From: a virus
Length of the DNA stretch: 64,000 nt
Virus record (IMG/VR): IMGVR_UViG_3300012642_000011
Span: 192,001-256,000 of that record
Strand: one strand, 5' to 3'
Below are positions 27,451 through 63,452 of the stretch, piece by piece. The notes below the pieces were generated by a model, which was given only the letters and a program-made list of their open reading frames with translations, searched no databases and was not told the origin of the DNA. A program made the translations under genes and the position numbers. The number at the start of each line of letters is the position of its first letter. The first letter of the stretch is position 1.

Positions 27451-27831
27451 CGTAGGTTTTTATTTTTTTGAGGGGGCTGCGCTCGCGGTGGGGGAGGTTT
27501 TTTAGGGACACAGTTTGGGGAGAGGAAATAATTTCATGGGGAGAGTAATAATTCTGGTCATGGTAGTGTATGCTGGTGTGGTGTTTTATTTCTTAGGGTG
27601 TGCTGTCGCCGTGGTCAGGTTGGAGTGTGCTGTGGGTTTGTGTTGTGTCGGCGGGGTAGTGAATTCGTGAGTTGACTTTTATTGTTCTCTGTGTGAGCAT
27701 GTTCTCTGTGTGAGCGTGGGAGATATAATTCGGTTGTTGTTGCAGTGTAGTGTTTGTAATGTGGTGCGACCCGCTGTTCTCCCGTGTGGGGTACTGGGCG
27801 GGCCGCTTGTGATCGTGGGGTCAGGCGTCCA

Positions 27832-27933
27832 TGTCGTCCATCTGGTCGGCAACGTAGCCGGAGCTCTTCGTGAGGAGGAAGAGGAAGATGGCGAAGTAGA
27901 GGATGATGAAGATGATTTCCATGATGTTCTCCT
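27832..27933 (-). CDS. 34-aa hydrophobic peptide (MEIIFIILYFAIFLFLLTKSSGYVADQMDDMDA)
   Basis: SD plus ATG preceded by conserved leader (catgatgttctccttgtggagtgtggggg); below the ORF-track size cutoff, translated by hand. Confidence 0.35.
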
Positions 27934-28164
27934 TGTGGAGTGTGGGGGTTTGGTCTCTTCCCTTGCCCTGTTGATGGTTTAATCATAGCATGGGGGACGC
28001 TCCATGCGCAAGGTGGTGTGGGAATTAATTTGTCGTGAAGTGGCCCGCTGTTTTCTCGTGTGAGGTACTAGGACGGGCCGCTTGCTGCCGTGGGACGGAC
28101 ATTTGTGTGCTGCTGGTTGGGTGCAGCAGTGTGTTTCCTTGTGGTTGGTGGTGTTGCCTTTGGT

Positions 28165-28311
28165 GTCAGCCGAGGTTGTTCCAGTGGGTATCGGGGGTGT
28201 GTCGGGGCTGGGTCTTGTCGTATCGCACGGTCTGGGCCTTGGGGGTGGGGTTGAGGGCGAAGAAGGATGCGATCACGAGGGTGGCGATGACGATGAGCAG
28301 GGCGGTCATGG
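28165..28311 (-). CDS. about 48-aa membrane peptide (MTALLIVIATLVIASFFALNP...)
   Basis: SD aaggagaacacc-ATG; hand translated. Confidence 0.35.
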
Positions 28312-28578
28312 TGTTCTCCTTAGGTGTCGTTGTTGGTTTAATCGTATCATGTGGTTTGGGTGTTGTCTATGTGTGCTGGTGTTCGTGTGTGGTTTTATTT
28401 AGGGACACAGGTTTGCGTAGTGGTGGTTTTCGGTTTAATTGTTCATGTTGAGTGTGTGCAAGTGTCCTCTCCGTGCGCAAGTGTCTTCTCCATGCTACCA
28501 CACGCACGCTTGCATATGCAGGAACGCTTGCACACGCCTCCCTGTGCAAGCGTTGTGTGGAGTGTTCTTGTGGGTGTG

Positions 28579-28899
28579 TTAGCCCATGAGGTAGTTGCTG
28601 TATGCGTTGGAGCATCGTGGGGAGCATACGCTGTCGTTTCCGGCGTCTTCTACGGAGAAGGTGTCACCGCAGTTGAGGCATTTGGCCCAGTGTTCTCCGA
28701 GGATAAGGATGCGGAGGTTGATGGCTGCGATTTCTCTGTGTTCTGGGTAATCACTGTTGAGGTTTTCTAGGGTGCTGGTGATGTGTTCTCGTTTGGGGTC
28801 GTTGGGGTCGAGGTTGTTCACGTATTCATTGATGGCGTGGTCTGTGAGGTTGGGGTGGGAGAGGAGGATGTTTACTTTGAGGTTGTTGATGCTTGTCAT
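28579..28899 (-). CDS. 106-aa protein with C-terminal CxxC...CxxxC zinc-ribbon-like motif
   Basis: ORF with SD; CLNCGDTFSV...CSPRC. Confidence 0.45.
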   Translation of the reverse strand: MTSINNLKVNILLSHPNLTDHAINEYVNNLDPNDPKREHITSTLENLNSDYPEHREIAAINLRILILGEHWAKCLNCGDTFSVEDAGNDSVCSPRCSNAYSNYLMG

Positions 28900-29124
28900 T
28901 GTGTTCTTCTTTCTCTTTGTATTGATGTGATGCCGTTTTTTGTTGTGAACGTGGGTAGTGTTGTTGTTTTATCGATTTCTTCTAGTTTCTTTGTCCATTC
29001 TTGTATCTGTTGCTGGTGTTGGTTTTGGTTGGTGTGATGGTGTTCTCCCTGTTGGTGGTTTTGTTTATTGTGTCGTTTGTGTTTTCTTTTCATGTTTTAC
29101 CTAGGGGCTGTATGATTTGTGCTT

Positions 29125-29383
29125 TTAATATGCGTGTTTTATTGGGAGTGTTCCTTTTCGCATGAGTGTGGTGAAGGTCCAGATGCAGGCTAGTGTGGAT
29201 GCCAGCGGCCAGAGTGGGGCGATGATGGCGATGAGGGCACCGATTTTGCGCATGTGTAGTGAGCGGTTTGTGACGTAGTTGGTAGTGTTGCTTCCTACGC
29301 AACCAGCTACGATCCAGAGGGCTACGGTGACAATCGACCATACGGTGAGGATTGTGATGTATAGAGTGTCTGGGTTGTTCATG
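29125..29383 (-). CDS. small 2-TM membrane protein
   Basis: Start at MNNPDTLYITIL; hydrophobic helices. Confidence 0.4.
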
Positions 29384-29384
29384 G

Positions 29385-29846: not shown

Positions 29847-29847
29847 T

Positions 29848-29997: not shown

Positions 29998-29999
29998 TT

Positions 30000-30467: not shown

Positions 30468-30690
30468 TGTGCTCCTGATTATGGGAATATTTACACTACT
30501 GATCTATCCACTGTAGCATATGTGTGTCTCGTTTTCAACCCTATTGGGGATGTTTTCTTTAGGTTGCTGTGAAGTGTTCGTGACTTTGGGGTTAGGTTGC
30601 TGTGGGGACACAATGTTGGGTGTAATAATCTTGTGTTTTCGTCATGGTGTTTTATCTGTTCTGTGTACTTTGTCATCTGTGTGCTTTGTT

Positions 30691-31743: not shown

Positions 31744-32496
31744 TCAATCGGTGGATCGAATTACAGCGTTGTTCTTCAGCCACGTTTCACCAGACACCAG
31801 CGCATCACCGAATACATCTGCTCGCTCGGATACCCACGCGTTATCACACACGTGTGCATTGCCGGACACATTTGCCATACCGAAAATCATCGCATTACCG
31901 GACACCAACGCATTTCCAGACACGCGTGCGTTACCAAATACCCATGCTGTGCCGATCACTCGTGCATTGCCGTCCACGCCTGCATTGCCAGACACGCATA
32001 CGTTGCCAGATACGTAGGCGTTATCAGTCAGCATGGCCTTACCAACCACCAGTACATAACCGGAAACTCGTGCGTTGCCAGTTACTCGCGCGTTGCCGGT
32101 CACCCACACGTCGTCAGTCACTCGCGCTTCGTACTCCACTGTCGAGTTGCCTTCTACGCGTGCGTTGCCGGACACTTCTGCGTTCTCGAAAACCTCTGCG
32201 TTACCGTACACCCACGCGTTGTCGGTTACTCGCGCGTTATCGTACACCTCCGCTTCACCGGACACTCGCGCGTTGTCGGTTACTCGTGCGTTACCGTAGA
32301 CTACTGCGTAGTCGAATACTCGTGCATCATCGGCTACCCAAGCGTTTCCTGAAAGGTTACCCAGATGTTCCACATATCCGCCGAGATCACCGGCCTTCAC
32401 GTCATGAGTAGGCAGGTCTCGTGTGGCTCGGATACGGTGGAGCGTGCGACCTTCATAGTGAATTGTTTCATCTGTTAATTCGAAGTGAGCGCTCAT
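31744..32496 (-). CDS. hexapeptide-repeat (left-handed beta-helix type) protein, about 29 consecutive [GD]-N-A-x-V-x repeats
   Basis: Strict 6-residue period GNARVT/DNARVS/GNAEVF... after about 60-aa N-terminal domain; SD aaggagag plus ATG; the opposite-strand R/H-rich ORF 31662..32411 is its shadow. Confidence 0.6.
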   Translation of the reverse strand: MSAHFELTDETIHYEGRTLHRIRATRDLPTHDVKAGDLGGYVEHLGNLSGNAWVADDARVFDYAVVYGNARVTDNARVSGEAEVYDNARVTDNAWVYGNAEVFENAEVSGNARVEGNSTVEYEARVTDDVWVTGNARVTGNARVSGYVLVVGKAMLTDNAYVSGNVCVSGNAGVDGNARVIGTAWVFGNARVSGNALVSGNAMIFGMANVSGNAHVCDNAWVSERADVFGDALVSGETWLKNNAVIRSTD

Positions 32497-32723
32497 GTTT
32501 TCTCTCCTTAAGTAAGGTTAACTCTGGTTTGTCATTCTCATTGGTGATCGTATATTACCACAAGAATACGACATAAACAAGACGTGTATAAAACTTATGG
32601 TGCGTATTTGCGCTTGTTATCGTTGTGGACTGTCGTTGTCGATAGGGACACAATCCAGTAATCCGTGAAAGAAGAATGCCCGCTATCCTCCCATGTGAAG
32701 GTCAAGCGGGCATCCGTAGTTCG

Positions 32724-33371: not shown

Positions 33372-33615
33372 GATGTTCTCCTATGTTTGTACGGTGAGTA
33401 TCAAGGCAATCGTATCAGGCTATCAGCCTATTGTCTACATCATGTTTCGAGATCATTATGGCTATGTGGGGACACAGTAATAGGCTGCAGGATTGGACTT
33501 TTCCTATACCCGATTGTGTGATTGTTTTCGGATGCTGCGACACAATAGCCCGCCGTTCCATCGTGTGAGGTACTAGGCGGGCCATTGCTTATCTACTGTC
33601 TGCGATCAGCGCGGA

Positions 33616-33825
33616 TCACTCGGAGACGACGTACACGGTTCCGGTGGCAGGCTCGTAGTCTTCGGGGCAATTGTCGCACTGCCACGGGCCTTCCATCTTG
33701 GTGGTGCCGCGAATCTGCTCTTCAGTGTAGAAGTCGATGTGCTTGTTGCAGACCGCGTAGACTTCGTGGCCCTTGTTCGAGAATGCGAACAGGTCAACGA
33801 AAGGTGCGTTCGCGTTCTTCATCAT
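33616..33825 (-). CDS. 70-aa protein with CxxC (CDNC) motif
   Basis: Start MMKNANAPF directly after SD ggagagagcatc; upstream part of the tracked ORF lies before the SD. Confidence 0.45.
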   Translation of the reverse strand: MMKNANAPFVDLFAFSNKGHEVYAVCNKHIDFYTEEQIRGTTKMEGPWQCDNCPEDYEPATGTVYVVSE

Positions 33826-34315: not shown

Positions 34316-34471
34316 GATTGTCTCCATGTCGATGATTGTTTTATCGAATGATAGCATATGGTTCTTTTGGTAGCAAGGTGGGGGCATGGGGACACGGAAT
34401 TATCACTAGGAAAGAACAACGGCCCGCTGTCCTCCCGTGTGTGGGATTCTAGCGGGCCGTTGCGGTTGGGG

Positions 34472-34885
34472 TCAGTCGCCCTCGCCATCGGCGCTAGTCT
34501 TCACGTCAATGTCCGGCACGACGTTCTCCGGCTTGAAGATGACACGATGATGGTACTCGCTGACATCAGCAGAATCAATCTGCTCCGCAATATAAGTAAC
34601 GTTGTCAGACAGGCCAAGGAAATGCTTCTTGTACTCGTTGGGGCCAATCTTGCATGTTACCTCAAGCTGACCATCTGCATCGACAATAGAGCATCGACCC
34701 TCTACCGTAAGCATGTACTTATCCGTGATTCCATTGTAGAAAACCACACGGCGATTGATTTCAAAGTTGTCTGCAGCAGTCGAAAGATTGTCACTAGCCC
34801 TTGACGCGCCAGACTGACAGCCGGTAAGCCCAAGGACAAGAGCACATGCGGCACCAACAAAAGCAAGGTTCTTCTTCTTATTCAT
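34472..34885 (-). CDS. secreted lipoprotein
   Basis: Signal peptide MNKKKNLAFVGAACALVLGLTGC with lipobox LTGC. Confidence 0.55.
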   Translation of the reverse strand: MNKKKNLAFVGAACALVLGLTGCQSGASRASDNLSTAADNFEINRRVVFYNGITDKYMLTVEGRCSIVDADGQLEVTCKIGPNEYKKHFLGLSDNVTYIAEQIDSADVSEYHHRVIFKPENVVPDIDVKTSADGEGD

Positions 34886-35200
34886 TACTCTCCTAATAGA
34901 TGTTTAAAGATGTGAACGTGGTTGATTCATTCGAGGTGATGGGCGGGTGTTTGTTCACGACATGTTATCTCCTTGAAAGCATTGGTCTTATGTTGTTCTC
35001 TTGATCTGATGCTCTCAATGTACAATAGGAACTCTTCACAGTCAAGTCAAGTCGAAGAAATTGTCGTGACGTGTGTAGGTTTTACGAAGACAAGTGTACG
35101 CTTCACCTTTAGCGGGAGGTTAAGGGACACAATTTAAACATCCCGTTATGAAGACAACGGCCCGCTGTCCTCCCGTGTGGGATTCTAGCGTGCCGCTGGT

Positions 35201-35566: not shown

Positions 35567-35703
35567 GATGTTCTCCTTGTGGAGTGTGGGGCTGATTACT
35601 GATGTAAGCATACCATGTTGACAGGGTGTTGTCTATAGATGGTTTTAATCTGGTCAACCTTTTATTTGGGGACACAGGATTGATCTCTTGCCCCGACGTT
35701 TAG

Positions 35704-36608: not shown

Positions 36609-36801
36609 GAATCGCTGCAAGGCCACGGTAGTCATTCGAGACTACCGTGGCCTTGTTGTATCTGCATGTACTTTGGTACTTCAACAGGGGACACAGAAAA
36701 CAATAGCCAATGGAGCCACAGTCATCATGACTCCATTGGCTGCTTTTGCGGTCAGATCTTCAACCTCTCTATGATCTACCCTCCTGTCTTGTGTAGGGTG
36801 A

Positions 36802-37699: not shown

Positions 37700-39250
37700 G
37701 CAGTCGCTGATTTTGTTACAATAATCACAATCCTAACAATTTTTACATAAGAGGATTTTCACGATAGTTCTTGATATAATCAAGCATGAGAAAAACACAC
37801 GCACCATTTAGACTTACGCATTATGAGATCCACGAAGGAAAAGCCACCAAAAAGGCAATCCTTCAAGAACTCACACGTATGAGCACATGGATGCGCGCAG
37901 AACAAGAACACTACTTCAAAAGCGACATGAACCGCATCATCCAAGAATTTCACAAAGGTGAAATCTTTACCGGTTCCCTTAACTCCCTCGGACGAACCCT
38001 CAACATACAACCATACAAGAACTACCCACACAATGCCTACAACATGAGCGAAATGCTCAGAACTTCCGTCCTCGCCCGCACCGCCGGACAAATACAAGAT
38101 GCCGCAATCTGCGAAATCATCAACAAAGACAATCAAAATGATACAAAAAAGATCATCCAAGACTTCAAGAATACTTATCCACACCTCAAAAAACCCACAG
38201 AAGCACACACCACAGCAGTAGCCAAAAGGCTCATCGAGAAGGGGGTCATTGCTGGAGAACCTGCTCCTGATGGGATCATTAACCTCTCCGCCACAGATAC
38301 TCACTATTGCAAAATCACAAGAGATAATCGCAATCTTTATTTAACTATTCGCTCCCTTGGAGAGTTAGGGCGAGTTGTGCTGAAGTTCAGAATCCCCAAA
38401 AGCGATAGGTTTAGCGGGGGTAAAATAACACGACCCAATATTGCTATCAAAAATGGGGAACCTGTTTTCTACTTCACTGTTCAACATGAGATTGAAACCT
38501 TACCCTACAACTCCCGCGTTCTCGGAGTAGATCTCGGCAAGATTGAAGAATATGTTGCTACCATTGTTGATGGTAACGAGATGAGCTATAGCGCTCCTTA
38601 TTATGCTCGAAAGAAAGTGAAAAGCATCACTGAACAGATGGATAAACTATGGAGACAGTATAATTCTAATAAATACAAGAAAGAAATGAATGAGAAGTTT
38701 GGTCATTTAAATCGCGCAAGCATTCATAAGACGGAATGCCAGAGAATCAGGTCAAGAATCACTCGGTTGAAGAATGAGAGAGCACTCACTATTGCTGCTC
38801 ATTTGGTAGAGGTTGCTGAGCGCAATGGCGTTAGCCTGATTTCTGTTGAGCAGTTATCATGGTTAGGGTCTAAAGGTGGCAAGTGGGAGCATTCTGCTAT
38901 TCAGAATGCTATGGAGAATCGTGGGAGACGTTCTGGCATCGGGGTGCGTAAAGTGAGTGCTAGGGGGACTTCCACTCATTGTTCTAAGTGTAATAAGGAG
39001 GCTCGTCAGTCTGGGCGTTTTGTGATTTGTGATTCTTGTGGTTTAAAGTTGAATCGTGATGTGTCTGCTTCTCGTAAGGTAGGCGTGAGGGCTATTCCTA
39101 ACGCTACTAAACAGTTTAACCATTATAAGCAGGTTTTATCGGTGATGACGCGATCATCGAGGCGGGTTACTATGGTTCCCTCTCCTTACCTCCAGAGTGT
39201 TACGATTGATTCTCAGGAATCTAAGAATTGTAACAACCTAGAGTAGCGTC
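37700..39250 (+). mobile_element. low-GC IS200/IS605-family IS1341-like element carrying tnpB only (no tnpA)
   Basis: Abrupt AT-rich island in GC-rich context whose boundaries coincide with the tnpB ORF. Confidence 0.55.
37786..39246 (+). CDS. tnpB: TnpB-like RuvC-fold RNA-guided endonuclease
   Basis: RuvC-I LGVDLGK, RuvC-II ISVEQLSW, zinc finger CSKCNKE...CDSCG, RuvC-III NRDVSASRKV. Confidence 0.75.
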   Translation: MRKTHAPFRLTHYEIHEGKATKKAILQELTRMSTWMRAEQEHYFKSDMNRIIQEFHKGEIFTGSLNSLGRTLNIQPYKNYPHNAYNMSEMLRTSVLARTAGQIQDAAICEIINKDNQNDTKKIIQDFKNTYPHLKKPTEAHTTAVAKRLIEKGVIAGEPAPDGIINLSATDTHYCKITRDNRNLYLTIRSLGELGRVVLKFRIPKSDRFSGGKITRPNIAIKNGEPVFYFTVQHEIETLPYNSRVLGVDLGKIEEYVATIVDGNEMSYSAPYYARKKVKSITEQMDKLWRQYNSNKYKKEMNEKFGHLNRASIHKTECQRIRSRITRLKNERALTIAAHLVEVAERNGVSLISVEQLSWLGSKGGKWEHSAIQNAMENRGRRSGIGVRKVSARGTSTHCSKCNKEARQSGRFVICDSCGLKLNRDVSASRKVGVRAIPNATKQFNHYKQVLSVMTRSSRRVTMVPSPYLQSVTIDSQESKNCNNLE

Positions 39251-39645: not shown

Positions 39646-39863
39646 TCTCAAGCAAGAACCCCAGTCAGACATAACTGGGGTTCTTGCTTGGCTCTCAATC
39701 AGGGGACACAATAAGTGACTTCTTCCAACTCGTAACCTTGAACTCTCCTCGCGCTTTCATCTTCTGTAGAAGTCATGTGTCCTTGGACAGCACGCAACCC
39801 CGACTCTACCATGTGTGAAACAAGGTCGGATCGGGGTTGCGTCGTCTATGCGCAGATGAGGCA

Positions 39864-50693: not shown

Positions 50694-51248
50694 TCACGCG
50701 GCACAGGTCATCTGATCCAGCGCACTGATAATGTCGCACTCAAAGCGCGCCTCCCTCTTCCCGCGCATCTCCACCGCTTCCAAGCAGTGATCCAGCACCT
50801 CGGAGAGATCCATCTCGCGACAGTCGATGATCTCTGACGGATGCAGAAGCACCTCCCAGTCGGCAGTGTGGTAGTCCCCGATGTTCTCCATGAAGTCCAT
50901 CAGAGGCACCGCGCCCTCCCAGTAAGCGTAGGCATAGGACTCATCACCGGAATCCTTCCACTGCTCATACTTGCTCACCTGATAGGCAAAGACCTCATCA
51001 CACTCCACCTCCACCTCATTGATGACGACAGTCGCGCCACCAGCCACCCCCTTGGTCCAGACCCAACGCATCAGTGCGCTCATGTCGGGAGCAGCGAAGA
51101 AGCAGTGGGAACGGGTGTGGTAACCCATAGTGCGCTGGATCGCAGGGTGACACATCTCGTCAAACTCGCGGTTGATCACGCGCACGTAGTCGTCTCGGAG
51201 GTGGAGGGGAGTCATCTCGCCCACCCTGTAGATCTTCATCGTCGTCAT
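50694..51248 (-). CDS. hypothetical 184-aa Cys/His-containing protein; shares its 5' module and first 13 codons (MTTMKIYRVGEMT) with the 61288..61539 gene
   Basis: Read directly; see finding on the duplicated 5' module. Confidence 0.5.
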   Translation of the reverse strand: MTTMKIYRVGEMTPLHLRDDYVRVINREFDEMCHPAIQRTMGYHTRSHCFFAAPDMSALMRWVWTKGVAGGATVVINEVEVECDEVFAYQVSKYEQWKDSGDESYAYAYWEGAVPLMDFMENIGDYHTADWEVLLHPSEIIDCREMDLSEVLDHCLEAVEMRGKREARFECDIISALDQMTCAA

Positions 51249-51453
51249 GGTGCCAGCCTACAGGACAAGAGGAAATAATGCAAGCCTGATGCTCTGCTTG
51301 TTTTTGCCTCATATTGTGTCCCCTTGGGCGTGCCATCATGTGCGCGCGTGGGGACACAGAATTCGAGAGTAGTCATGAACCACGATGAGCACACACGCGC
51401 CGCCCCGCCGTTCATCCTCTGGGGACTACTTGGCGGGGCGAGCGGCTTGCAGG

Positions 51454-51852: not shown

Positions 51853-52084
51853 GGTATCTCCTTGAAGAGTGGTGGGTCTTGCCGGTTGCTTGCCCCTTGA
51901 TGACTCCTACTCTACCAGCAAGACGCTCCATTATCCAACCCCAGAGCAATATTGTGTTCTTCAACAGTAAGCGCACACTCGGATGGACGAGTCGCTCTGG
52001 GGACACAAATTAATGCTTAAGTATCCTATACGCACGCATGCCCGCCACCCCTCTGTCGTAGAGTTCTGGCGGGCATGCTGCATG

Positions 52085-52453
52085 TCAGCGAGAGGTGTTC
52101 AGAACCGAAAAAAGGTCATTCATAAGCATGGCGGCAACACGGTTCCGTGACGCCTCATCTGCAGGCACGGGAACGTCCGACATTGCCATGTGGATGAGCC
52201 TCTTCGTCTGGTCAGACAGGAACTCCTCGGCGATCTGGGTATCGGTCGCACCGGCGTCACGCTTTCTCTTGAGGTTGCCAGCAATCATCTTACGATGGCG
52301 GGCGTCCATGAAAGCCTTGAGGTCATGAGAAGAGATCGTTTCAACAAGGTTCGATGTGCTTGCGACCTCTACAGCCGACTTGTAATCCCCCTCAGCACGA
52401 TTGATGAACTGGTCGATGATGAACGTGACGATGTCCTGCTGATCCTGCTCCAT
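52085..52453 (-). CDS. hypothetical 122-aa protein
   Basis: Conserved module G upstream. Confidence 0.5.
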   Translation of the reverse strand: MEQDQQDIVTFIIDQFINRAEGDYKSAVEVASTSNLVETISSHDLKAFMDARHRKMIAGNLKRKRDAGATDTQIAEEFLSDQTKRLIHMAMSDVPVPADEASRNRVAAMLMNDLFSVLNTSR

Positions 52454-52537
52454 GATGTTCTCCTTGAGAGTGTTGGTCTCGGGCTGTTCCCTTGACCTGA
52501 TGAAATGATCTTACCACACGGGACGCTCCACGGTCAA
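52454..52537 (-). promoter_or_regulatory. conserved promoter-leader module (copy G): -35 TTGACC, 18-nt spacer with GGAGCGTCC, -10 TAAGAT, leader hairpin, SD
   Basis: -10 at + strand 52508-52513, -35 at 52532-52537. Confidence 0.65.
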
Positions 52538-52642
52538 TCTTTCCATGAAACTTCATGCATGAATGGTTCCGCGTTCGGACCTATTCATGCATGGCCCCTC
52601 CCCTGTGGGGACACAATATGGGTGACCACTGTGCGCACGATA

Positions 52643-52695: not shown

Positions 52696-52947
52696 TCAGA
52701 GCGTGATGACCTCGATAGCGGCGATCTCCGACAGGTTGATGAACAGGTCAGCGGTGCTCTTGACGACGGCGGGGTACTTACCCTGCGCGTGGTCATCGGT
52801 CAGGATCTGGAAGCCCTCGGCGGACATGCGAGCATCCTCCAGCGGCTCGGGGGCAGTCTTGACCTGCACGCCGGACTTCAGCGTGATGACGACCTGACCC
52901 TCGCGGTGATCGAACTTGTAACCGATAAAGTTCTTGTTCTGCTCCAT
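52696..52947 (-). CDS. hypothetical 83-aa protein
   Basis: Conserved module H upstream. Confidence 0.5.
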   Translation of the reverse strand: MEQNKNFIGYKFDHREGQVVITLKSGVQVKTAPEPLEDARMSAEGFQILTDDHAQGKYPAVVKSTADLFINLSEIAAIEVITL

Positions 52948-53147
52948 GATGTTCTCCTTGAAAGTGTTGGTCTCGGGTGGCTCCCTTGACCTGATGGAAT
53001 GACCTTACCACACAGGACGCTTCTTGTGCAACCCACATTGGAGGAGAAGGGAGGGGACACAAGATGTTGCCACCAGAGCACTACGAACATGACAAAGCCC
53101 CGCCGTCCCTCCGTGATGGAGTTCAGGCGGGGCATTATCGGAGTGAG

Positions 53148-53522
53148 TCACTCCACGGGAGCGAGGATCTGGGCGAGCTCTTCATCGGTCAGCGAGTCGT
53201 AGTGGGACTCACCCTCGTCATCCACGCTCTCGCGGATCACCAGCACCGGACCGAACGGGTACGTTTCGTCCATGAGACCCAGACGATTGATGACGTGCTC
53301 GTGGGGGTTGGGAGTGTCGAACCTGTAGATGCCCTCGTCGTCGGCCACGACCTCGATACCGTCACTGTAGTTCTTACGCGGCATGTAGGTGATCAGACCC
53401 AGCCCCGCGACCTCTCGAAAGACGCGGAATGCGCCAGCACCCTCTTCGATGGTCATTTCCACGGCACGCGGGGCAGAGTCGAGGTTGGCGGGAACAAGCA
53501 CGGCCTTGATGGTCTGCGACAT
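53148..53522 (-). CDS. paralog family B member 2 (124 aa)
   Basis: MSQTIKAVLVPANLDSAPRAVEM...; module I upstream. Confidence 0.5.
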   Translation of the reverse strand: MSQTIKAVLVPANLDSAPRAVEMTIEEGAGAFRVFREVAGLGLITYMPRKNYSDGIEVVADDEGIYRFDTPNPHEHVINRLGLMDETYPFGPVLVIRESVDDEGESHYDSLTDEELAQILAPVE

Positions 53523-53607
53523 GGTATCTCTCCTTGAGAGTTTCGGTCTTGGGCGGTTCCTTCGACCTGATGAGACCATCCTACATGATAGGACGCTCCA
53601 CTGTCCA
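53523..53607 (-). promoter_or_regulatory. conserved promoter-leader module (copy I): TGGACA-18-TAGGAT
   Basis: -10 at 53578-53583, -35 at 53602-53607. Confidence 0.6.
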
Positions 53608-54151
53608 GACCGCACCCAGTCACAGTTGTCGTGGCTGCAGTTACCACTAAAGACATTTTGCTTCCTCAAGGTGTCTTTGAAGTCAATCTGTCCATGAAAG
53701 AGAACGTGATGAATACACTTTGACATTTTGACTCGAAGACTGATTGGACAAATTGATCTGGGGGTGATCCGTAGTGACCCTCCGAACGTCACCACGGCCT
53801 CGTGCATGCTGTGCGGCGCTGTAAGCCTATTTGACGCACTGACATTGCCTCAGCGTCCAAGAGTGCCCTCAGATGTCACCAGAGGCTCACAGAGGCGCTC
53901 ATAGGCTCCTGACGCACTCGGAGAGGGCCACGTGCTCTCGTGCTCTCGTAAAGTCTCCTGCACCCTCACAGGGACCATAATGACCATGTGATGCCATGTG
54001 AGCACGATGGGGCAGGCGCGCAACTGCTGCATCTATCCCTGACGGTGAGAGCGGATAGTGGGCGAGTTGCCATAGGGGACACAAAAGATGATACAAAGAG
54101 ATGACCCCGCTTTGCGATTCAGGTCAGAATCGCAAAGCAGGGTCTAACAGG

Positions 54152-54490: not shown

Positions 54491-54892
54491 GGTTTCTCCT
54501 CAGAAAATATGGCAGGGTCTTCCTGATCCAGTAATTCGATTCTACTACATCCTCTCTTGCGAGTCAACAACTCCGATGAGACGGTACTGGTGGTTGCCCT
54601 TGCCGTGCCGCTGACACCATTCGGGGACACAGTTAGCACATTGCAGCAAGAGCCACCAAGTAACCCGTAAGGGTGAAAGGTGGCGTAGTGGTCAGTGCTG
54701 ATCAGGTCGATTCCCTTGATGGTGCGCATGATGAGTGCCCTCTTCCTGTTGAGTGATCTTTGTCCATGCAGTCTATCAGGGATGGGGCGAGAGTCAAGTG
54801 GATGTAAAGGTTCCCGAGGGGACACAAGATGATCAGAAAAACACAAGACCCAGCAATTCAACTCACTGGGTCTTGTGTTTGTGCGTGTTCCC

Positions 54893-55201: not shown

Positions 55202-55615
55202 TCAGTTCATCGGGATCATCTTGTCCCAGTCACGGACGAACGTCATGTCCTTGAACGCTTCATGATGAGTATCGCCATAGCGGACGCGCCACTGCTGCAT
55301 CGGTACCAGCCCCTCCCCATTGCGCACCAGTCGCTCGTATCCGGTTTTCGTGTAGCACCCCGACGTGTAGAGAATCTTGCCGTCCTCGGACTCCTGGACG
55401 CGCCGGATGATCTCTTTCGCCAGCCCCTTCCCACGATACTCGGGGCGCACCTCAAGGTCGCACAGAGCCAGTCCCTTTTCCTCGCCCTCCACCACGTGAT
55501 TGTCGTCGTGGTGGAAGTAGCAAAGGTAGGCTACCGGAACACCGTCGATCAGCATGAACGTGTCGATCATGGAGTTCGCCCAGCGCTTCTCCTTGTTAAG
55601 TGTGATGGTGCTCAT
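55202..55615 (-). CDS. GNAT-family N-acetyltransferase
   Basis: Acetyl-CoA-binding motif A LEVRPEYRGKGLAKEII (R-x-x-G-x-G/A). Confidence 0.6.
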   Translation of the reverse strand: MSTITLNKEKRWANSMIDTFMLIDGVPVAYLCYFHHDDNHVVEGEEKGLALCDLEVRPEYRGKGLAKEIIRRVQESEDGKILYTSGCYTKTGYERLVRNGEGLVPMQQWRVRYGDTHHEAFKDMTFVRDWDKMIPMN

Positions 55616-56011
55616 GATGTTCTCCTATGGGGAGTGCGGGTTTATTGCTGATGAGTAGCGGGGCGGGGAGAACTACCACTCCCCGCCCCGCCGTGTATCC
55701 GTTCAGGCGCTTGTGGGCTTTCCACAGTGACCATCAACCCATTGGGGAGGATGATCCACCGCATTTGAGCTTCTTCGAGAGGCTTGAGTGGCGCTCTGTC
55801 CTGTTGTCTTGATCGTAGCACCCTTGTGCTCATGGTGTCAATGCGAGTTCTCCACGGACAAGGACGCTCCACTGGTCTTGGTCTGTCACGCGCTGTTCTG
55901 GGTCTCGCTACTGTCCATCTCGTTCTTCATAGAAGGGACACAATCCCTGCACAGCGAGAGAGGGCGGGGCTTCCACCGTCTCCGGCTTCCGCCCCGCCCT
56001 CTTGGGTGAGG

Positions 56012-56212
56012 TCAGTAGTCCTCGTCCCGCGTCTCGACCCACTCGGCGTAACTGGACGGACTCATCCATTCAATCCGCAGCGGCTGGCCGGAGGCGCTGA
56101 ACCACTGCCCGCACGAGCACTGCTGGTCGCCCTGACCACGGTAGCACTCCACGGTCTCGCCGCAGCCACACTCCCACGTGTGGGTGGGGGTCTCGAACTC
56201 GTAATCCGCCAT
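56012..56212 (-). CDS. 66-aa zinc-ribbon-like protein (WECGCGETVEC...CSCGQWF)
   Basis: Module K upstream. Confidence 0.5.
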   Translation of the reverse strand: MADYEFETPTHTWECGCGETVECYRGQGDQQCSCGQWFSASGQPLRIEWMSPSSYAEWVETRDEDY

Positions 56213-56296
56213 GCTGCTCTCCTTGAGAGTGGTGGTCTTGGGATGTTCCCTTGACCTGATGAGACCAGACTACACGATAGGACGCTCCACTGTCCA
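56213..56296 (-). promoter_or_regulatory. conserved promoter-leader module (copy K): TGGACA-18-TAGTCT
   Basis: -10 at 56267-56272, -35 at 56291-56296; leader hairpin GGTCAAGGGAACATCCCAAGACC. Confidence 0.65.
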
Positions 56297-56433
56297 GTCG
56301 AAAACCGAGAATCTTTCTCCAGAAGGCAGACGGAGCGATCAGGGGACACACATCGAGGCGCGTGTGCGAAGCAGAAACGCCCCGCCATCGTCCTCTCGGG
56401 TGAGGAGTCAGGCGGGGCGGTCTCGGAGTGCTC

Positions 56434-56601: not shown

Positions 56602-56842
56602 TGCTCTCCTTGCTCGGAGTTTGATTGACATGACCATGATAGAACGCGTTTGATGTTCATGTCAAGAGGTTTTCCAGAATTCCAGAGAGCGATCTTCGTG
56701 ACGGACTCATCGAGTGAGCGTGGTGGTTGCTGTCTGGGTGAGCAGGGCAAGGGGACACAGTATTCGTGAGCGCGGTAACGCGATGACACCGCCACGCCCC
56801 GCCTGTACTCTACCACAGAGGGACGGCGGGGCGCTGTGTTAT

Positions 56843-57232
56843 TCAGTCCGCGATCAGAACACCCTGCTCAACAAGGTAGTCGATCATCTTGGAGCGCACC
56901 AGCACCCAGCGGGAGCCATCTCCCTCGAAGTCATCACCGATGGTCTCCCACAGGAACTTGGAAGCATCCTCCATGTGCTCGATGCCGTTCGTGTAGAAAG
57001 TCGGAGCGGACTCAAGCGCCTGCTCACTCATGTCCACACCCAGTGCCACCATGATGACACGATCCTCGGGGCCGTCGTAACCGTTGTCCGTGGCCTCCAT
57101 GACCTCGGGGACGGGCACGCCGCGCTCAATGTGAGCCTCGAAGACCTGACTGATGAACTCGATCTCCACCGTGAGGTCGGGGAAGTTGTCGATAGCGTCG
57201 AAGACCTGATGATCGGTGACCTGCTTCATGTA
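56843..57232 (-). CDS. hypothetical acidic 129-aa protein
   Basis: Start MKQVTDHQVF; module L upstream. Confidence 0.5.
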   Translation of the reverse strand, partial: YMKQVTDHQVFDAIDNFPDLTVEIEFISQVFEAHIERGVPVPEVMEATDNGYDGPEDRVIMVALGVDMSEQALESAPTFYTNGIEHMEDASKFLWETIGDDFEGDGSRWVLVRSKMIDYLVEQGVLIAD

Positions 57233-57403
57233 TCTCTCCTTGAGAGTCGTGGTCTTGGGGGAATCCCTTGACCTGATAAGGCCATCGTAGCGCACGTAGT
57301 CCGCTTTGTCGAATCTGCAGACGGGGTAGCCCCAGAGGCCAAAGGGGACACGGAATCAAGGACAACAGAACAGGCGGGGAGTACTATCACTCCCCGCCTA
57401 CTC

Positions 57404-57774: not shown

Positions 57775-59120
57775 ACAGATGCTTAATTACATGCTTTTTG
57801 CTATACTATAATGTAGAAACGGGAAGAAGGTGAAAAATGATACTCACAGAGAAGCATGTGATTCGCAAAAATCACATGAACTTCAATGAGTGCGATCATC
57901 TCGCTTTCTTGAGCAAGAATCTTTACAATTCTACTCTTTTTGCCGTTCGCCAGCACTACTTCAGTAATGGTGAATACCTTAACTACAATAATGCAAATAA
58001 AATCTTCACCATAGAGGGACAAAGCGACTATGTTGCCTTGCCCAGAAAAGTCAGCAAACACACAATGATGCTGGTGGATCGTTCTTTCAAATCCTTTTTC
58101 AAACTCTTGGAGAAGAAAAGAAATGGAGAATATGACAAAACCGTAAGAATCCCAAAATACTTAGACAAAACAAAAGGTCGTCAAGTTGTTCATTATGAAA
58201 AAGGGGCATTGTCCTTCAAGAAGAAGGAGGGGTACCTCTATCTTTCACAGACTAACATATATTTGAAAACCAAGGTAACTTCGGATCAAATTCAATTTGC
58301 TAGAATCGTCCCTCGGGGTGAGCATTATGTGATTGAGGTGGGATATAGGGTTCCTCAGGTAGATAATCTTCACGATAATGGGCGATACCTGTCCCTTGAT
58401 CTTGGGGTGAATAATCTTGTCACAGCAGTGAGCAATGTGACAGCCCCGATACTCTTCAATGGGCGACCATTGAAGAGTATCAATCAGTTTTACAATAAGA
58501 GATTTGCATCCCTTCAGTCTAAACTCGGAGAGGAGGTGAAAAGCAGTAAGCAGATCAAGACTTTGCATCAGAGAAGATTGAACAAAATCAATGATTATCT
58601 CCACAAAGCCTCAAGAATGTTGGTGAATCACGCAGTTGAAAACTCTATCAATACTATAGTTATTGGATACAATAAAGAGTGGAAACAAGACATCAACATT
58701 GGGCGAAGAAACAATCAGAATTTTGCCTCTATTCCTTTTGCAAGGCTTATTGAGATGATTGAATACAAGGCTTCTCTTGTTGGTATCAACACCATCAGAC
58801 AGGAAGAGTCCTATACTTCCAAGTGTTCCTTTCTTGACGATGAGCAGGTGAGGAAAGCCAATTCCTATTCAGGAAGAAGGGTGAGTCGAGGTCTTTTCAA
58901 GACTGGGCAAGGACTTCGCGTTAATGCTGATGTGAATGGTGCCTTGAATATCTTAAGAAAAGCACTGAAAGTATCATGGAATGACCAGTTGTGGTCAGAC
59001 TGTGTAGCGGCGTGCAGTGTGCCGAAGCGGGTCAATATACCAGCTTGAAATGTTAATTCATGTTTATCATGTTTTCAACTAACTGTCCATCTTCTCGTTC
59101 ATCGTAAGTATTTTTTCTCC
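57775..59120 (+). mobile_element. second low-GC IS1341-like tnpB-only element (about 1.35 kb, with about 75-nt AT-rich tail after tnpB stop)
   Basis: AT-rich island; tail ...gtaagtattttttctccttgggaatag is the likely right end / omega-RNA region. Confidence 0.55.
57837..59048 (+). CDS. tnpB: TnpB-like RuvC-fold protein (zinc-finger Cys largely lost)
   Basis: RuvC-I LSLDLGVNNLVTAV, C-terminal YTSKCSFL...NADVNGALNILRK; only one Cys where CxxC...CxxC is expected. Confidence 0.75.
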   Translation: MILTEKHVIRKNHMNFNECDHLAFLSKNLYNSTLFAVRQHYFSNGEYLNYNNANKIFTIEGQSDYVALPRKVSKHTMMLVDRSFKSFFKLLEKKRNGEYDKTVRIPKYLDKTKGRQVVHYEKGALSFKKKEGYLYLSQTNIYLKTKVTSDQIQFARIVPRGEHYVIEVGYRVPQVDNLHDNGRYLSLDLGVNNLVTAVSNVTAPILFNGRPLKSINQFYNKRFASLQSKLGEEVKSSKQIKTLHQRRLNKINDYLHKASRMLVNHAVENSINTIVIGYNKEWKQDINIGRRNNQNFASIPFARLIEMIEYKASLVGINTIRQEESYTSKCSFLDDEQVRKANSYSGRRVSRGLFKTGQGLRVNADVNGALNILRKALKVSWNDQLWSDCVAACSVPKRVNIPA

Positions 59121-59479: not shown

Positions 59480-59511
59480 GATGCTCTCCTTAGGGGAATG
59501 ACTGTGTTGTT

Positions 59512-60039: not shown

Positions 60040-60226
60040 GATGTTCTCCTAATGAATAATTGATGAGTCTTGTTCAAGTGCAATGCTATACCGTCATATG
60101 TGTTACGTCAAGCCTCATCCGCGAGCGATCAAGGAGTTCTCACATGGGGACACAACTTGAGCGCAAGCGCACCCCTTGAACAGCAAAAAGTGGGCAGCGC
60201 CTCCACTACCCACCCTTGCTCATGAG

Positions 60227-60520: not shown

Positions 60521-60712
60521 GTTCTCTCCTTAGAGTGTCTGCGCGGTGTTGCGCTCTGCAATGAACTCTACCCTACGCGGTGGATCATTGTCAAAGCGCA
60601 ACGCAGTGAATGCATATGGGGACACAATACTCGCGGCAGCGCCATGAGCGCAGCAGCACAACGCCCCGCCGTTCATCCTCGGGGGACTACTGGGCGGGGC
60701 GCTGGTGGGGTC

Positions 60713-61127: not shown

Positions 61128-61287
61128 AGCCGGAATGAGTAGGGCGAACAACTTTTTCCTCCCTATGCGATGAGGGGGTGGGTGTAGCGTGAGGGGACAC
61201 AGATTGTATGATCACCACATCGGCAACACACACACAACGCCCCGCCGTTCATCCTCTGGGGGACTACTGGGCGGAGCGTGCGGTGGA

Positions 61288-61539
61288 TCAGGCGTTGGTC
61301 TGGTAGCGACGCTCCCACTCGTCCATGATGGAGTTCGCCACGCGGTTGAGGGTGCACGCGTTGGTGTCCATGAGGATGACTCGGTAGCCCTTCTTGCTCC
61401 CCGTGACCGCACCGTAGCGGGTCAGGGTGCGGGCACAGACATGGTTGATGATCTTGGTCACATCCATCTCGTCTGTGCCCTTGAACTGCGGCAGGGTCAG
61501 GGTCATCTCGCCCACGCGGTAGATCTTCATCGTCGTCAT
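61288..61539 (-). CDS. hypothetical 83-aa protein sharing N-terminal MTTMKIYRVGEMT with the 50694..51248 gene
   Basis: See duplicated 5' module. Confidence 0.45.
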   Translation of the reverse strand: MTTMKIYRVGEMTLTLPQFKGTDEMDVTKIINHVCARTLTRYGAVTGSKKGYRVILMDTNACTLNRVANSIMDEWERRYQTNA

Positions 61540-61704
61540 GGTGCCAACCTATAGGATGAGAGGGAATAATGTAAGTCTGATTGCCTGCATATTTTTGTCT
61601 TATATTGTGTCCCCTTGAAGCGAGTCATCATGTGCGCGCGTGCCAGTTGAATGCAAGAGGGCGGGTTTAGCCATGGTGCGCTCAACCCGCCCTCACGCAG
61701 TAGG

Positions 61705-62337
61705 TCACACCTCGAACGACTCCCACGTGATCGAGACCGGACGGCGCACGGCGCGCCACATGTGCTCACTACCCTCATCCTTGGAGTCAGCCATCCAGCC
61801 CATCACCTGTGGCAGAGACATGTCAGAGCGGTGAAGGTCTTCAGAGTTCAGGTGATTCGGCACAGAGTCTGCACGGGCGATGCCATACTGCCAGATCCGA
61901 CCGTTCAGGCGGTTGGTGCGAATCGTCTCCAAAGCGCGCACGTTGATGTCCTCATCGAAGTCAAGCGCCACGCGAGTGGGGAAGATTTCAGGACGATCTG
62001 CACCGTAGAAGATGATAGCTTCGTTGTGAAGGTTGTAGTCACCATCCTCAAGCAGAAGTACACCCTCACCATAGTGGATGATCGCCTTCATGGTGTCAGA
62101 GTCATCATCGAAGATCGAGTGATAACGGTCATCCTTGCTCACGCGAGCCTCGAACACCACGTCCTGACGCAGAGCGTCATGATCCTCCTTGTAGGAGGTC
62201 TCGAACTTCACGCCATGAGCGGAGAGAACGTCGTAGATGCCCTTGGCGTTCTGGTCGATGCAGCCGATCATCTTGGCGAAGTCGGGCACGTGAGCCTTCG
62301 GGATGGTGATGCGGTAGAGGGGGTGGATCTTAGTCAT
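61705..62337 (-). CDS. hypothetical 210-aa protein
   Basis: SD aaggagagagcacc. Confidence 0.5.
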   Translation of the reverse strand: MTKIHPLYRITIPKAHVPDFAKMIGCIDQNAKGIYDVLSAHGVKFETSYKEDHDALRQDVVFEARVSKDDRYHSIFDDDSDTMKAIIHYGEGVLLLEDGDYNLHNEAIIFYGADRPEIFPTRVALDFDEDINVRALETIRTNRLNGRIWQYGIARADSVPNHLNSEDLHRSDMSLPQVMGWMADSKDEGSEHMWRAVRRPVSITWESFEV

Positions 62338-62525
62338 GGTGCTCTCTCCTTGAGTAGCGGAATTCTTACTGATGTAGAGACTACCATCATCTTCTCCTCA
62401 ATGCAAGCCATGCGATCAATCAGCAAAATGAATGCCGGTCGGACTAAAGCGATAGTCCGACCGGCTTAGTCAGAAGCATTGCGCGCTCAAGCACCTATGG
62501 TGCTAACAAGAAGCATTCTTGACTG

Positions 62526-62876
62526 ATGTGTAGAAGCATACATGCTGATCAGGCAGAGCGCAACCGTTGTCTTCGTGAGGTGGGTCACGGTGTCCGACTG
62601 GCGAGGAACGCGGGTGAGGAGAATGACACGCTCATGACCGCGTTGGAGCGCTTCGGCTTCGAGGTGGATGCCGGTTACGAGAACCCCGATGACGTGGTGA
62701 TCACGAACTACAACGACAAGTATGGCGATGAGATCGTCGCCGCTCTGGAGGCACTTGCCCCGTTCGCTGTCGAGGGCACGGGGATGCAGTGGCAGGGCGA
62801 GGACAATTCCTTCTGGAAGATGGAGGTCAAGGGTGGCAAACTGGATGAGAAGAACGGGGATCTCACCTACTCCTGA
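62526..62876 (+). CDS. hypothetical protein (start uncertain; possibly Met at 62632)
   Basis: ORF only. Confidence 0.3.
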   Translation: MCRSIHADQAERNRCLREVGHGVRLARNAGEENDTLMTALERFGFEVDAGYENPDDVVITNYNDKYGDEIVAALEALAPFAVEGTGMQWQGEDNSFWKMEVKGGKLDEKNGDLTYS

Positions 62877-62949
62877 CCCCAGCACCTTGACGAGAATGCC
62901 CCCATGAGGTAGCATGGAGGCAACAAGCACTCACAGCAGACAGGAGAAC

Positions 62950-63225
62950 ATGATGAACAAGGTGGATGAGGTCAAGACCCACGATGACGCTGGTTTCCTC
63001 ATGGGTTACGAGTTCTACGAGGACAACGGGAAGTTCCGCTGGATCTTCACCGAGCACGGTCAGCCGGACGACGTGAGCAGTGCCCGCTTCGACAGTCTGA
63101 TCGATGCTCTGCGCGGGGCTTCGGACAACGCTGAGGACTCCTTCGGCTCTTACGAGGAAGCCAAGCGACTCACGCGCGTGATGCGCGGCAAGGCGACCCG
63201 ACTGGAGAAGAAGAACCAGTCCTGA
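62950..63225 (+). CDS. hypothetical 91-aa protein
   Basis: SD caggagaacATG; followed by terminator gccccgctggtgacaatgccagcgggcgtttt (63232-63266). Confidence 0.45.
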   Translation: MMNKVDEVKTHDDAGFLMGYEFYEDNGKFRWIFTEHGQPDDVSSARFDSLIDALRGASDNAEDSFGSYEEAKRLTRVMRGKATRLEKKNQS

Positions 63226-63452
63226 CGATGAGCGCCCCGCTGGTGACAATGCCAGCGGGCGTTTTCTATATTCACATTTCGTGTCCCCACTCGTCCCACG
63301 GCGCACCCGCAACAGCAATGAGCCCAGATGACAACATGAGAAGGGGATCAGTGGAGAGGTCGCCACAAGGGGACACAATATGACTATTTTTGAGAACACC
63401 ACCGCCCCGCCTGAACTCCGAGAGGGAGGATAAGCGGGGCGGTTGGTATAGA

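Follow-up and report, generated by a model that had tools for sequence, protein, structure and literature searches.

We analysed a stretch of 64,000 nucleotides (the window), positions 192,001 to 256,000 of the IMG/VR virus record IMGVR_UViG_3300012642_000011, the right-hand part of which is an array of small gene cassettes whose spacers repeat a short, asymmetric DNA word (the motif) almost always on the same strand. The proteins of the window are 100% identical to those of contig k141_11150 of ERZ27289831 (332,269 bp) and of contigs from further samples, which reach 437,576 bp, and the array beyond the window was read on this source contig to 82.5 kb. The array spans 27504-63381 (+) inside the window and continues on the source contig to at least 82.5 kb in window coordinates, so that it covers at least 55 kb, with a G+C content of 47-63% (27.5-82.5 kb). 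Over 29-82 kb it comprises 72 genes on the - strand and 17 on the + strand, which are small and nearly all without a Pfam family; the typical unit is a single gene with its own sigma-70-like promoter, a strong Shine-Dalgarno sequence (SD) and a terminator hairpin.

A position matrix built from the 40 + strand copies of the window gives the consensus W-G-GGGACAC-A-R-W-A-T, about 14 nt long, with nine near-invariant and four degenerate positions and no dyad; no conserved flank or second half-site was found from -25 to -3 or from +13 to +35. The form GGGGACACA has 34 exact matches in the window (31 on +, three on -), where shuffled sequences lead us to expect 0.55, and RGGGACACA has 39 where 1.35 are expected; the enrichment is approximately 60-fold and restricted to the array. 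The 7-nt core GGGACAC is found 40 times on the + strand and five times on the - strand, all within 27,505-63,370, with zero copies on either strand in positions 1-27.5 kb of the window. The 7.5 kb to the left of the window (contig L001) also hold zero copies; across the 33 kb of core DNA that lie leftwards of the DnaA boxes described below, the motif is absent in both orientations. Past the window there are 24 further copies, all on +, which brings the total for 27.5-82.5 kb to 69 copies over 55 kb, 64 on + and five on - (binomial P = 4e-14). Successive copies are separated by a median of 685 nt, usually one gene. An ATG follows around 15 of the 40 copies as a by-product of the ...AT tail. When the literature was searched for the string GGGGACACA, the matches were primers and unrelated sequences only. 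Counts, shuffles and matrix thus all confirm the motif array described in the initial annotation, and the copies are enriched in spacers and biased 64:5 rather than equally frequent in both orientations.

From the left, the + strand copies begin at 27504-27516 (AGGGACACAGTTT), 28401-28413 (AGGGACACAGGTT), 30604-30616 (GGGGACACAATGT), 32644-32656 (AGGGACACAATCC), 33468-33480 (GGGGACACAGTAA), 34388-34400 (GGGGACACGGAAT, a G variant), 35123-35135 (AGGGACACAATTT) and 35668-35680 (GGGGACACAGGAT); a predominance of AGGGACACA had been claimed for this part of the array (27.5-35.7 kb), which is not clear from its four A-forms and four G-forms. They continue with 36687-36699 (GGGGACACAGAAA), the sole copy of a convergent spacer, 39702-39714 (GGGGACACAATAA) and 40337-40349 (GGGGACACAGATT), after which three copies lie downstream of the terminators of + genes, at 41541-41553 and 42239-42251 (both GGGGACACAGAAT) and 42964-42976 (GGGGACACAGTTC), and a fourth downstream of a + gene at 43298-43310 (GGGGACACAGAAT). 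The copy at 43983-43995 (GGGGACACAATAT) stands single, with two convergent terminators on its sides, and is followed by 44622-44634 (GGGGACACAATGC), by 45358-45370 (GGGGACACAGAAT), which is 22 nt away from the terminator at 45392-45426, by 45927-45939 (GGGGACACAAGAA) and by a second G variant at 46352-46364 (GGGGACACGGAAT). The copies at 46947-46959 (GGGGACACAATAA) and 47083-47095 (GGGGACACAGTAA) are the left and right members of a direct pair. Another G variant, 47989-48001 (GGGGACACGGAAT), occupies a convergent spacer; then come 48597-48609 (GGGGACACAATGC) and 49351-49363 (GGGGACACAGTTT), the latter 17 nt past the terminator of a + gene (49307-49333).

Further to the right, the + strand copies are at 51350-51362 (GGGGACACAGAAT), 51999-52011 (GGGGACACAAATT), 52607-52619 (GGGGACACAATAT), 53053-53065 (GGGGACACAAGAT, kept in two relatives of 97-98% identity, L110 and L111), 54075-54087 (GGGGACACAAAAG, whose ortholog in the sister element described below is GGGGACATAAAAG), 54623-54635 (GGGGACACAGTTA), 54818-54830 (GGGGACACAAGAT), 55934-55946 (AGGGACACAATCC), 56342-56354 (GGGGACACACATC), 56751-56763 (GGGGACACAGTAT), 57344-57356 (GGGGACACGGAAT, the last G variant), 60146-60158 (GGGGACACAACTT), 60618-60630 (GGGGACACAATAC), 61193-61205 (GGGGACACAGATT) and 63369-63381 (GGGGACACAATAT). 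The five reversed copies are at 50544 (GGGACACTTTC, on -), which lies inside a gene and is probably a chance occurrence; at 50643-50655 (GGGGACACAGGGA, on -); at 51311-51323 and 61602-61614 (both GGGGACACAATAT, on -); and at 63276-63288 (GGGGACACGAAAT, on -), which shares a convergent spacer with the + copy at 63369 and lies 13 nt past the terminator of the + gene 62914-63225, the layout expected of an inverted standard cassette. The copies at 51311 and 61602 are the two reversed copies that had been placed in a duplicated 5' module; we find one in each copy of that module (51211-51350 and 61502-61642, 86% identical), which precedes two - strand genes that are apparently leaderless (TTGCAT-17-TAGGCT, with the ATG 7 nt after the -10), and in both the reversed motif is approximately 27 nt upstream of the -35. 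The annotated inverted pair at 51315-51358, TGTGTCCCC-N26-GGGGACACA, is correct, and the homology between the two modules stops exactly at the left edge of its + member, the copy at 51350.

To relate the motif to genes we used the gene calls stored for the source contigs, after removing seven calls of low G+C at third codon positions that were contradicted by promoters or terminators. The reversed copy at 50544 is the only one inside a credible gene, while the other 68 are in spacers; the 32 kb of coding DNA in the array would be expected to hold 3.6 copies by codon shuffling. A strong hairpin (dG of -24 or below) lies 8-35 nt from most copies, to the right of the motif where the gene is on - and to its left where the gene is on +. 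Among 79 spacers of at least 40 nt, and counting as hairpins those with dG of -20 or lower, the motif is present in 54 of the 59 spacers with a hairpin and in five of the 20 without (Fisher P = 3e-8). Convergent spacers have one copy common to two terminators. Seven of 11 spacers with divergent promoters lack the motif, as do nine of 12 short tandem spacers, which are typically 90-120 nt long, operon-like, and equipped with a promoter and no strong hairpin. The gap between the motif and the promoter landmark GGACGCTCC varies from 42 to 206 nt, and no overlap of any copy with a predicted -35 or -10 was found. The tie to hairpins, combined with this variable distance, indicates that the motif belongs to the termination zone and not to the promoter.

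The strand of the motif is independent of the strand of its neighbours. Each of the four tandem + spacers and eight convergent spacers in which it occurs has a + copy, and 11 of the 12 copies at the 3' ends of + genes are on +, the same as copies beside - genes. The initial annotation was therefore right that the orientation is invariant irrespective of flanking gene strand, that the site lies between the upstream terminator and the next promoter, and that it is not a conventional promoter element, given the variable distance to the -35 and -10, its usual absence from divergent spacers and the lack of a partner hexamer. Two more of its statements have to be corrected: the motif is not in nearly every intergenic space, being present in 59 of the 79 spacers and chiefly in those with a hairpin, and it is not fixed at 80-90 bp from the transcription start site, the gap to the promoter landmark being 42-206 nt and that to the terminator hairpin 8-35 nt. 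Several known elements were considered for the consensus and rejected. A sigma-70 -35 or -10 element is ruled out by the lack of a partner hexamer at 16-18 nt, and an SD with the start codon of a small + strand open reading frame (ORF) by the lack of ORFs following the motif. A weak DnaA box would match TGTGGACAA at six or seven of nine positions, yet the conserved positions of the motif reach past the box. In our own comparison with the matrix, neither a CsrA-type GGA site, nor the gyrase consensus, nor a poxvirus-type CCCTT topoisomerase site fits.

Selection on the motif was assessed in four strain variants (L167, L173, L174 and L177) that are 94-98% identical to the window; L173 and L174 overlap, and these comparisons are thus not fully independent. 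None of 371 positions of the 7-nt core is changed (0%), against 578 of 12,950 other spacer positions (4.5%; P = 9e-8) and 391 of 24,090 coding positions (1.6%), so that the core varies less than coding DNA. The degenerate positions, that is the leading base and the ARWAT tail, are changed in 11 of 309 cases (3.6%), with the RWAT tail varying at the spacer rate. The motif core is clearly under purifying selection. A sister element (L107, SRR26458596; G+C 38-44%), in which an array protein is 63% identical and the T2SSE ATPase 58% identical, has core-like copies in its spacers, two of GGGGACACGAT and one of GGGGACAT, two in the standard orientation and one reversed; its promoter module differs, with the core-like motif retained. 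A second strand-fixed word, GTGTCACGTCCCC, occurs twice in this element (100-122 and 746-760), upstream of both promoters, and might be recognized by the same kind of factor, either as a diverged form of the site or as a second one. The motif array is absent from a distant syntenic relative of 60-70% G+C (L171), despite a region of small genes there.

The units of the array are built from other conserved parts as well. Most - genes share a promoter and 5' untranslated region (5'UTR) module of approximately 85 nt, which consists of TTGACN, the word GGAGCGTCC between the hexamers, TAnnnT, and a 55-nt leader that begins CATCAGGTCGAGGGAACAGCCCAAGACC and may fold, followed by AAGGAGA; GGAGCGTCC looks like an operator. 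This module is found on - strand genes only, among others at 40768-40850, 44492-44552, 45768-45850, 46236-46296, 52445-52527, 52939-53021, 53515-53597, 56204-56286 and 57221-57303, and + genes use other promoters. All 29 occurrences of the promoter landmark have one orientation, which implies that cassettes are not inverted within the array. The stem-loop terminators group into families. In self-comparisons the homology between modules never reaches into the motif, which forms an isolated conserved island amid unrelated spacer sequence.

Comparison of the strain variants shows how cassettes are gained and lost. L167 has two extra cassettes (N1 and N2), joined at the ATG or within the 5'UTR module. 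In L173 two 48-nt terminator copies have recombined, with loss of 34463-35152, and an ORF is swapped at 33616-33825, where the conserved flanks are a terminator and a 5'UTR. An additional cassette is present in L177 at 53131, joined within terminators; this variant also lacks exactly 118 nt (46961-47078) between the motif copies at 46947 and 47083, with one hybrid copy left. Other edges of homology fall at or close to the motif. L177 has a replaced segment up to the left edge of the copy at 54818, from which homology resumes (edge at 54816); the homology of both L107 and L177 breaks approximately 27 nt to the left of the copy at 54623; that of L174 starts at 39693, approximately 9 nt before the copy at 39702; that of the paralogous modules ends at 51350; and a duplicated block starts at or within approximately 10 nt of a copy (L167 6113 / L006 8366). 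Every cassette added in the variants has its own motif copy in the standard orientation. By our own tally approximately six of 16 junction ends are near the motif, which is not clearly above the approximately 19% that we estimate for spacers. The motif, the 5'UTR module and the terminator are three conserved linkers that all serve as crossover points, and since junctions fall in the latter two as often as at the motif, the motif is probably not a dedicated attC-like site.

Some apparent junctions were discarded. Those at motif edges in L167 (L006 5171-5932 and 8251-8369) are scaffold runs of N, and a 19-nt difference in L166 is an N-run with an insertion of CTGTCTCT that is probably adapter-derived. 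Assembly artefacts of this kind are seen in L166 (JGI 3300012292) at the window equivalents of 55668 and 56844, and in L167 at 3622-3722 and 7099-7198; one N-run of L167 has its end precisely where a motif copy lies.

The few array genes with a recognizable family encode two proteins with Lsr2 DNA-binding domains, a KptA/Tpt1 RNA 2'-phosphotransferase, a cREC_REC protein, a GNAT acetyltransferase, and Phage_gp86 and Phage_VG64 proteins; these genes lie at 63453-63950, 55202-55615, 56012-56212 and 34472-34885 in the window (all -) and, on the source contig, at the window equivalents of 66979-67497 (+), 72183-72488 (-) and 78338-78709 (+). Such a content suits a region for host manipulation, establishment or anti-defence. 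Two paralogous YdcK-type beta-solenoid proteins, encoded at 31744-32496 (-) and at the window equivalent of 72763-73488, are the only tested array genes with wide homology: the former matches phrog_5070 and phrog_7964 strongly, and the latter has thousands of database relatives. Two differing TnpB genes (IS605 OrfB / Cas12f-like) without TnpA, at 37786-39246 (+) and 57837-59048 (+), sit in inserts of low G+C that interrupt the array, and the first element ends on its right approximately 10 nt before the motif copy at 39702. The suggestion that the motif is a guide or target signal for these TnpB elements is not supported, as nothing is conserved beyond the 13 nt and this is the only end of an insertion sequence near a copy; a role as TnpB guide or transposon-adjacent motif was rejected also since L174 is not an empty site.

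The array is carried by an undescribed extrachromosomal, plasmid-like element with a size of at least 437 kb, for which searches of phage and plasmid collections, IMG/VR, the JGI contig collection and GTDB genomes returned no close relative. A 14-mer scan of IMG/VR returned single chance matches only, with no match to the two-copy pattern; the promoter-module pattern, which matches the window six times, had no match in the JGI metagenome collection or GTDB genomes; and the two-copy motif pattern had 53 matches in GTDB genomes, about the number estimated for chance. Those GTDB matches with multiple copies that we inspected are tandem or repeat arrays, not dispersed. An unrelated contig (L150, 480-1193) of a GTDB metagenome-assembled genome (MAG) has long tandem arrays of 9-10-mers like TGTGTCCCC, and another MAG contig (L135), similar in look, has 26 core copies in 1.3 kb with no apparent link to the present finding. 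Identity with the 'Inocles' was rejected, these having 24-32% G+C and Streptococcus hosts.

The left 26 kb of the window, with approximately 40% G+C, encode a PD-(D/E)XK nuclease, a divergent GyrA (only around 32% identical to its best matches in phage collections) and a RadA-like ATPase, and a gene for Pol III alpha lies just upstream of the window. They also include a module resembling a pilus or DNA-transfer apparatus, with a TadA-family ATPase that contains an intein, T2SSF proteins, CpaB, and TadZ/ParA-like, TcpF/VirB4-like and PilT/TraJ-like ATPases; all NCBIfam matches of this module are below the curated cut-offs. The TadA/VirB11-family secretion ATPase (11899-14625, +) is split by an intein-like insert with a Hom_end homing endonuclease domain at residues 532-596. 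No Rfam families and no tRNAs were found in the window.

Between this core and the array lies a 3-kb non-coding region (24540-27500), the + strand of which is A/C-rich to approximately 26.3 kb and then abruptly G/T-rich. The A/C-rich part has many repeats of approximately 14-23 nt and one of 66 nt. At the composition switch there are three DnaA boxes on the - strand (26127-26178; at 26127, 26148 and 26170, within 52 nt), two of TTATCCACA and one of TTGTCCACA; these are followed by five repeats of GGGTGTGCGCA at 26.43-26.78 kb and by G-rich ...TCATG... repeats at 26.8-27.4 kb. Judged by these sequence features, the region is probably the replication origin of the element and possibly also a transfer origin. 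With a putative origin at 26.1 kb the + strand of the array would be the lagging-strand template; it is also the template strand for 72 of the 89 array genes. Adjoining the region, and adding to the local skew, is a gene (22489-24540, -) for a highly acidic, repetitive protein of 683 aa without a family, which has counterparts in the same position of 715 aa in L171 and 677 aa in L172. The host is probably actinobacterial, to judge from the Lsr2-domain genes, the leaderless-type starts of two genes and the syntenic relative of 60-70% G+C.

We tentatively propose that the motif, an asymmetric cis-element of 13-14 nt maintained by selection, marks the untranscribed stretch just past intrinsic terminators and acts as an asymmetric protein-binding boundary or roadblock, a reading that we hold to be possible rather than probable. 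A sequence-specific DNA-binding protein, probably element-encoded, is predicted to bind it as a monomer or in some other asymmetric manner, with double-stranded GGGGACACARWAT as the predicted target. The bound protein would form a boundary or roadblock where RNA polymerases reach the end of a unit, and would either insulate cassettes with strong promoters from their neighbours or permit silencing of the array as a whole in the manner of stoperators. The constant orientation might arise because the bound complex is polar relative to the adjacent origin, with the motif on the lagging-strand template, or because the array consists of direct repeats that never invert. This proposal draws on the enrichment of the motif, its restriction to the array, the conservation of the core, the copies in the sister element, the location in spacers and the association with hairpins. 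A boundary or roadblock fits best with the occurrence in tandem and convergent and not in divergent or operon-like spacers, as RNA polymerase arrives in the former, and the compact asymmetric matrix without dyad or flanks is that of a protein site rather than of a larger duplicated module. Several observations weigh against it: the orientation rule of stoperators is broken, in that 11 of the 12 copies at + gene 3' ends stay on +; no operator-type copy exists, the -35 and -10 never being overlapped; no candidate helix-turn-helix protein is among the genes called in 27-82 kb, according to the precomputed Pfam lists; and a symmetric roadblock alone does not account for the 64:5 strand bias. The initial annotation also named a binding array for a partition protein or for Lsr2 as a possible role; Lsr2 domains bind AT-rich DNA, and the motif core is G/C-rich.

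The strand bias could instead reflect a signal read on single-stranded DNA (ssDNA). Under this explanation the array is either the leading region of a giant transferable element, which enters first, or simply lagging-strand template located rightwards of the origin. A primase or some other factor that acts on ssDNA would be recruited by the motif, and every cassette would thereby be converted to duplex separately; synthesis primed at the motif and proceeding leftwards would reach the promoter of the unit on the left first and its gene afterwards. Here the orientation is fixed relative to the replicon and not to the genes; the motif strand is the lagging-strand template relative to the DnaA boxes and composition switch at 26.1 kb; the TadA-family, TcpF/VirB4-like and PilT/TraJ-like ATPases and CpaB flank the non-coding region; and the motif is confined to the array and does not reach the core. 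Both IS605-family tnpB genes are on +, as expected for ssDNA transposition into the lagging-strand template. The motif strand is moreover the template of most array genes, as reported for leading-region genes (PMC11541004). Against these points, no relaxase or oriT has been identified, the matches of the transfer-like genes are all sub-threshold, and the motif has no known primase specificity. Its hairpin is 5' at + genes and 3' at - genes, which is not a fixed hairpin-plus-motif geometry of the single-strand initiation (ssi)/G4 type, and a transcription boundary explains more directly why the motif accompanies terminators and is absent from divergent and operon-like spacers. We regard this explanation as doubtful. 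It is likewise unlikely that the motif partitions an establishment (leading) region into units of one gene that are primed or processed one by one, with each cassette expressible alone; if true, this would be a new kind of cis-organization of leading regions, unrelated to Frpo/ssi hairpins.

The variation between strains raises another explanation, that the motif is a recombination site or hotspot at cassette boundaries, exchanged in the manner of attC or acting as a Chi-like or nick-initiated hotspot, with direct repeats allowing insertion and deletion and no inversion. The precise motif-to-motif deletion in L177, the homology edges at 54816, 39693, 51350 and L167 6113 / L006 8366, the motif copy in each added cassette and the co-oriented landmarks all favour it; however, the junctions of four or more gain, loss or swap events lie elsewhere, and as any conserved linker can harbour one, general homologous or microhomology recombination is sufficient. 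The frequency of junctions near the motif is not clearly raised. The attC-like role suggested in the initial annotation is further weakened by the absence of a dyad or attC-like palindromic fold and of any integrase among the genes called in 27-82 kb; no recombinase family is listed among the called genes of either 1-27 kb or 27-82 kb. As a whole, the recombination explanation is distinctly unlikely. Very unlikely, in our view, is a compact promoter for a non-host RNA polymerase (single-subunit and T7/SP6/K11-like, or otherwise element-encoded) firing rightwards, which would yield sense transcripts for + genes and antisense transcripts that shut off - genes late. The motif consensus WGGGGACACARWA is compatible with 11 of 13 positions of SP6 from -13 to -1 (AGGTGACACTATA) and resembles K11 (AGGGCACACTATA), a G/C-rich recognition part is followed by an A/T-rich tail, and each - unit has a copy at its 3' end that points into it. 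Yet nothing is conserved at the equivalents of -17 to -14 or +1 to +6, the approximately 90 kb read of at least 437 kb contain no RNA polymerase gene, such transcripts have no terminators and would be antisense to 72 of 89 genes, and copies after + terminators have no antisense role. Finally, the motif might have no function of its own and be a relic that spread with duplicated spacer modules, its orientation frozen as the array never inverts. The array is indeed one of direct repeats, with all 29 landmarks in one orientation and with conserved families of promoters and terminators, but the homology of duplicated modules stops short of the motif, the core is unchanged (0/371, against 1.6% of coding and 4.5% of spacer positions), and it is kept in a sister element with a different promoter module. 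This explanation is extremely improbable.

Among known systems, the anatomy of the motif as a boundary element is closest to that of stoperators, with a different rule of orientation and placement and with a giant carrier that is itself undescribed. An actinobacteriophage genome has 20-30 stoperators distributed across it, asymmetric repressor sites of 13 bp that block elongation (PMC6550527). Those of cluster A mycobacteriophages, the sites of L5 gp71 and the Bxb1 repressor, resemble the motif in being approximately 13 bp long, asymmetric and without a dyad, in numbering tens of copies with a strong orientation bias in the non-coding gaps of an actinobacterial mobile element, and in differing in sequence between related elements (PMC6550527). 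Stoperators, however, follow local transcription and lie inside polycistronic units, whereas the motif ignores gene strand and lies past terminators, outside units. One stoperator is a true operator in the early promoter, while no motif copy comes closer than 42 nt to GGACGCTCC. Stoperators are dispersed, and the motif is confined to one array (69 copies in 55 kb and none in the 33-kb core, with approximately 90 kb of at least 437 kb read). As both the orientation rule and the operator copy fail, we limit our claim to the motif working like a stoperator, and advance even this as a possibility short of likely.

The array as a whole invites comparison with systems of modular gene exchange. Integron arrays also have one site per cassette in direct orientation whatever the gene strand, a content that varies between strains, and, as here, a precise site-to-site insertion or deletion. 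Their attC is an imperfect palindrome of 57-141 nt with paired core sites that is recombined as folded ssDNA by IntI next to attI, and their cassettes depend on a common promoter. The motif has 13 nt and no fold, and the hairpin nearby is a gene terminator at variable distance on either side; the array differs further in having no integrase nearby, its own promoter and terminator for each cassette, and many junctions at other linkers. The PeSL of T4-type phages, reportedly described by Arbiol and colleagues in 2010, are said to be promoter-early plus stem-loop modules that mediate modular gene shuffling. They likewise have small ORFans between near-identical promoter/5'UTR modules and stem-loop terminators that serve as linkers for homologous recombination, and they are not known to have an extra, isolated, strand-fixed 13-nt word between terminator and promoter; the motif lies outside the duplicated modules.

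Other polar or strand-specific signals are more distant. Chi, the FtsK-orienting KOPS, the SpoIIIE recognition sequences (SRS) and 'architecture imparting sequences' are words of 5-8 nt that extend over a whole replichore, lie mostly in genes and switch strand at the origin and terminus. The motif is similarly short, G-rich, asymmetric and skewed to the strand that is G-rich (the leading-sequence strand) on the right side of the putative origin, but it has 13 nt, is absent from 33 kb across the origin, and is limited to post-terminator gaps (one coding copy against 68 in spacers). Promoters of the T7/SP6/K11 type have a conserved block of approximately 23 nt from -17 to +6, with an A/T-rich upstream part and an initiating run of G; in the motif only the equivalent of approximately -13 to -1 is conserved, and the flanks are without information. 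DNA uptake sequences (DUS/USS) are genome-wide, occur in both orientations and often form inverted pairs that act as terminators, in contrast to the motif, which is array-confined and biased 64:5, with only two inverted pairs, neither forming a terminator. Frpo and ssi are ssDNA hairpins of a few hundred nt or less that mimic a duplex promoter or a primosome site. Like the motif under the ssDNA explanation, they are strand-specific and on the template strand of early genes, in an establishment or anti-defence-like region beside transfer genes (PMC11541004); the motif, however, is an unstructured 13-nt word, and each gene has an ordinary duplex promoter.

None of the stoperators, attC, Chi/KOPS, uptake sequences or Frpo obeys the rule of the motif. 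If this rule holds, a 13-nt word is set one way in around 70 consecutive post-terminator gaps and is more conserved than the surrounding genes, and its carrier combines a core of approximately 40% G+C with a hyper-modular array, 50-63% in G+C, of ORFan cassettes that are visibly swapped between strains. The motif would then offer a compact, orientation-defined boundary element, and identifying its reader would reveal how the array is insulated, silenced, replicated or transferred.

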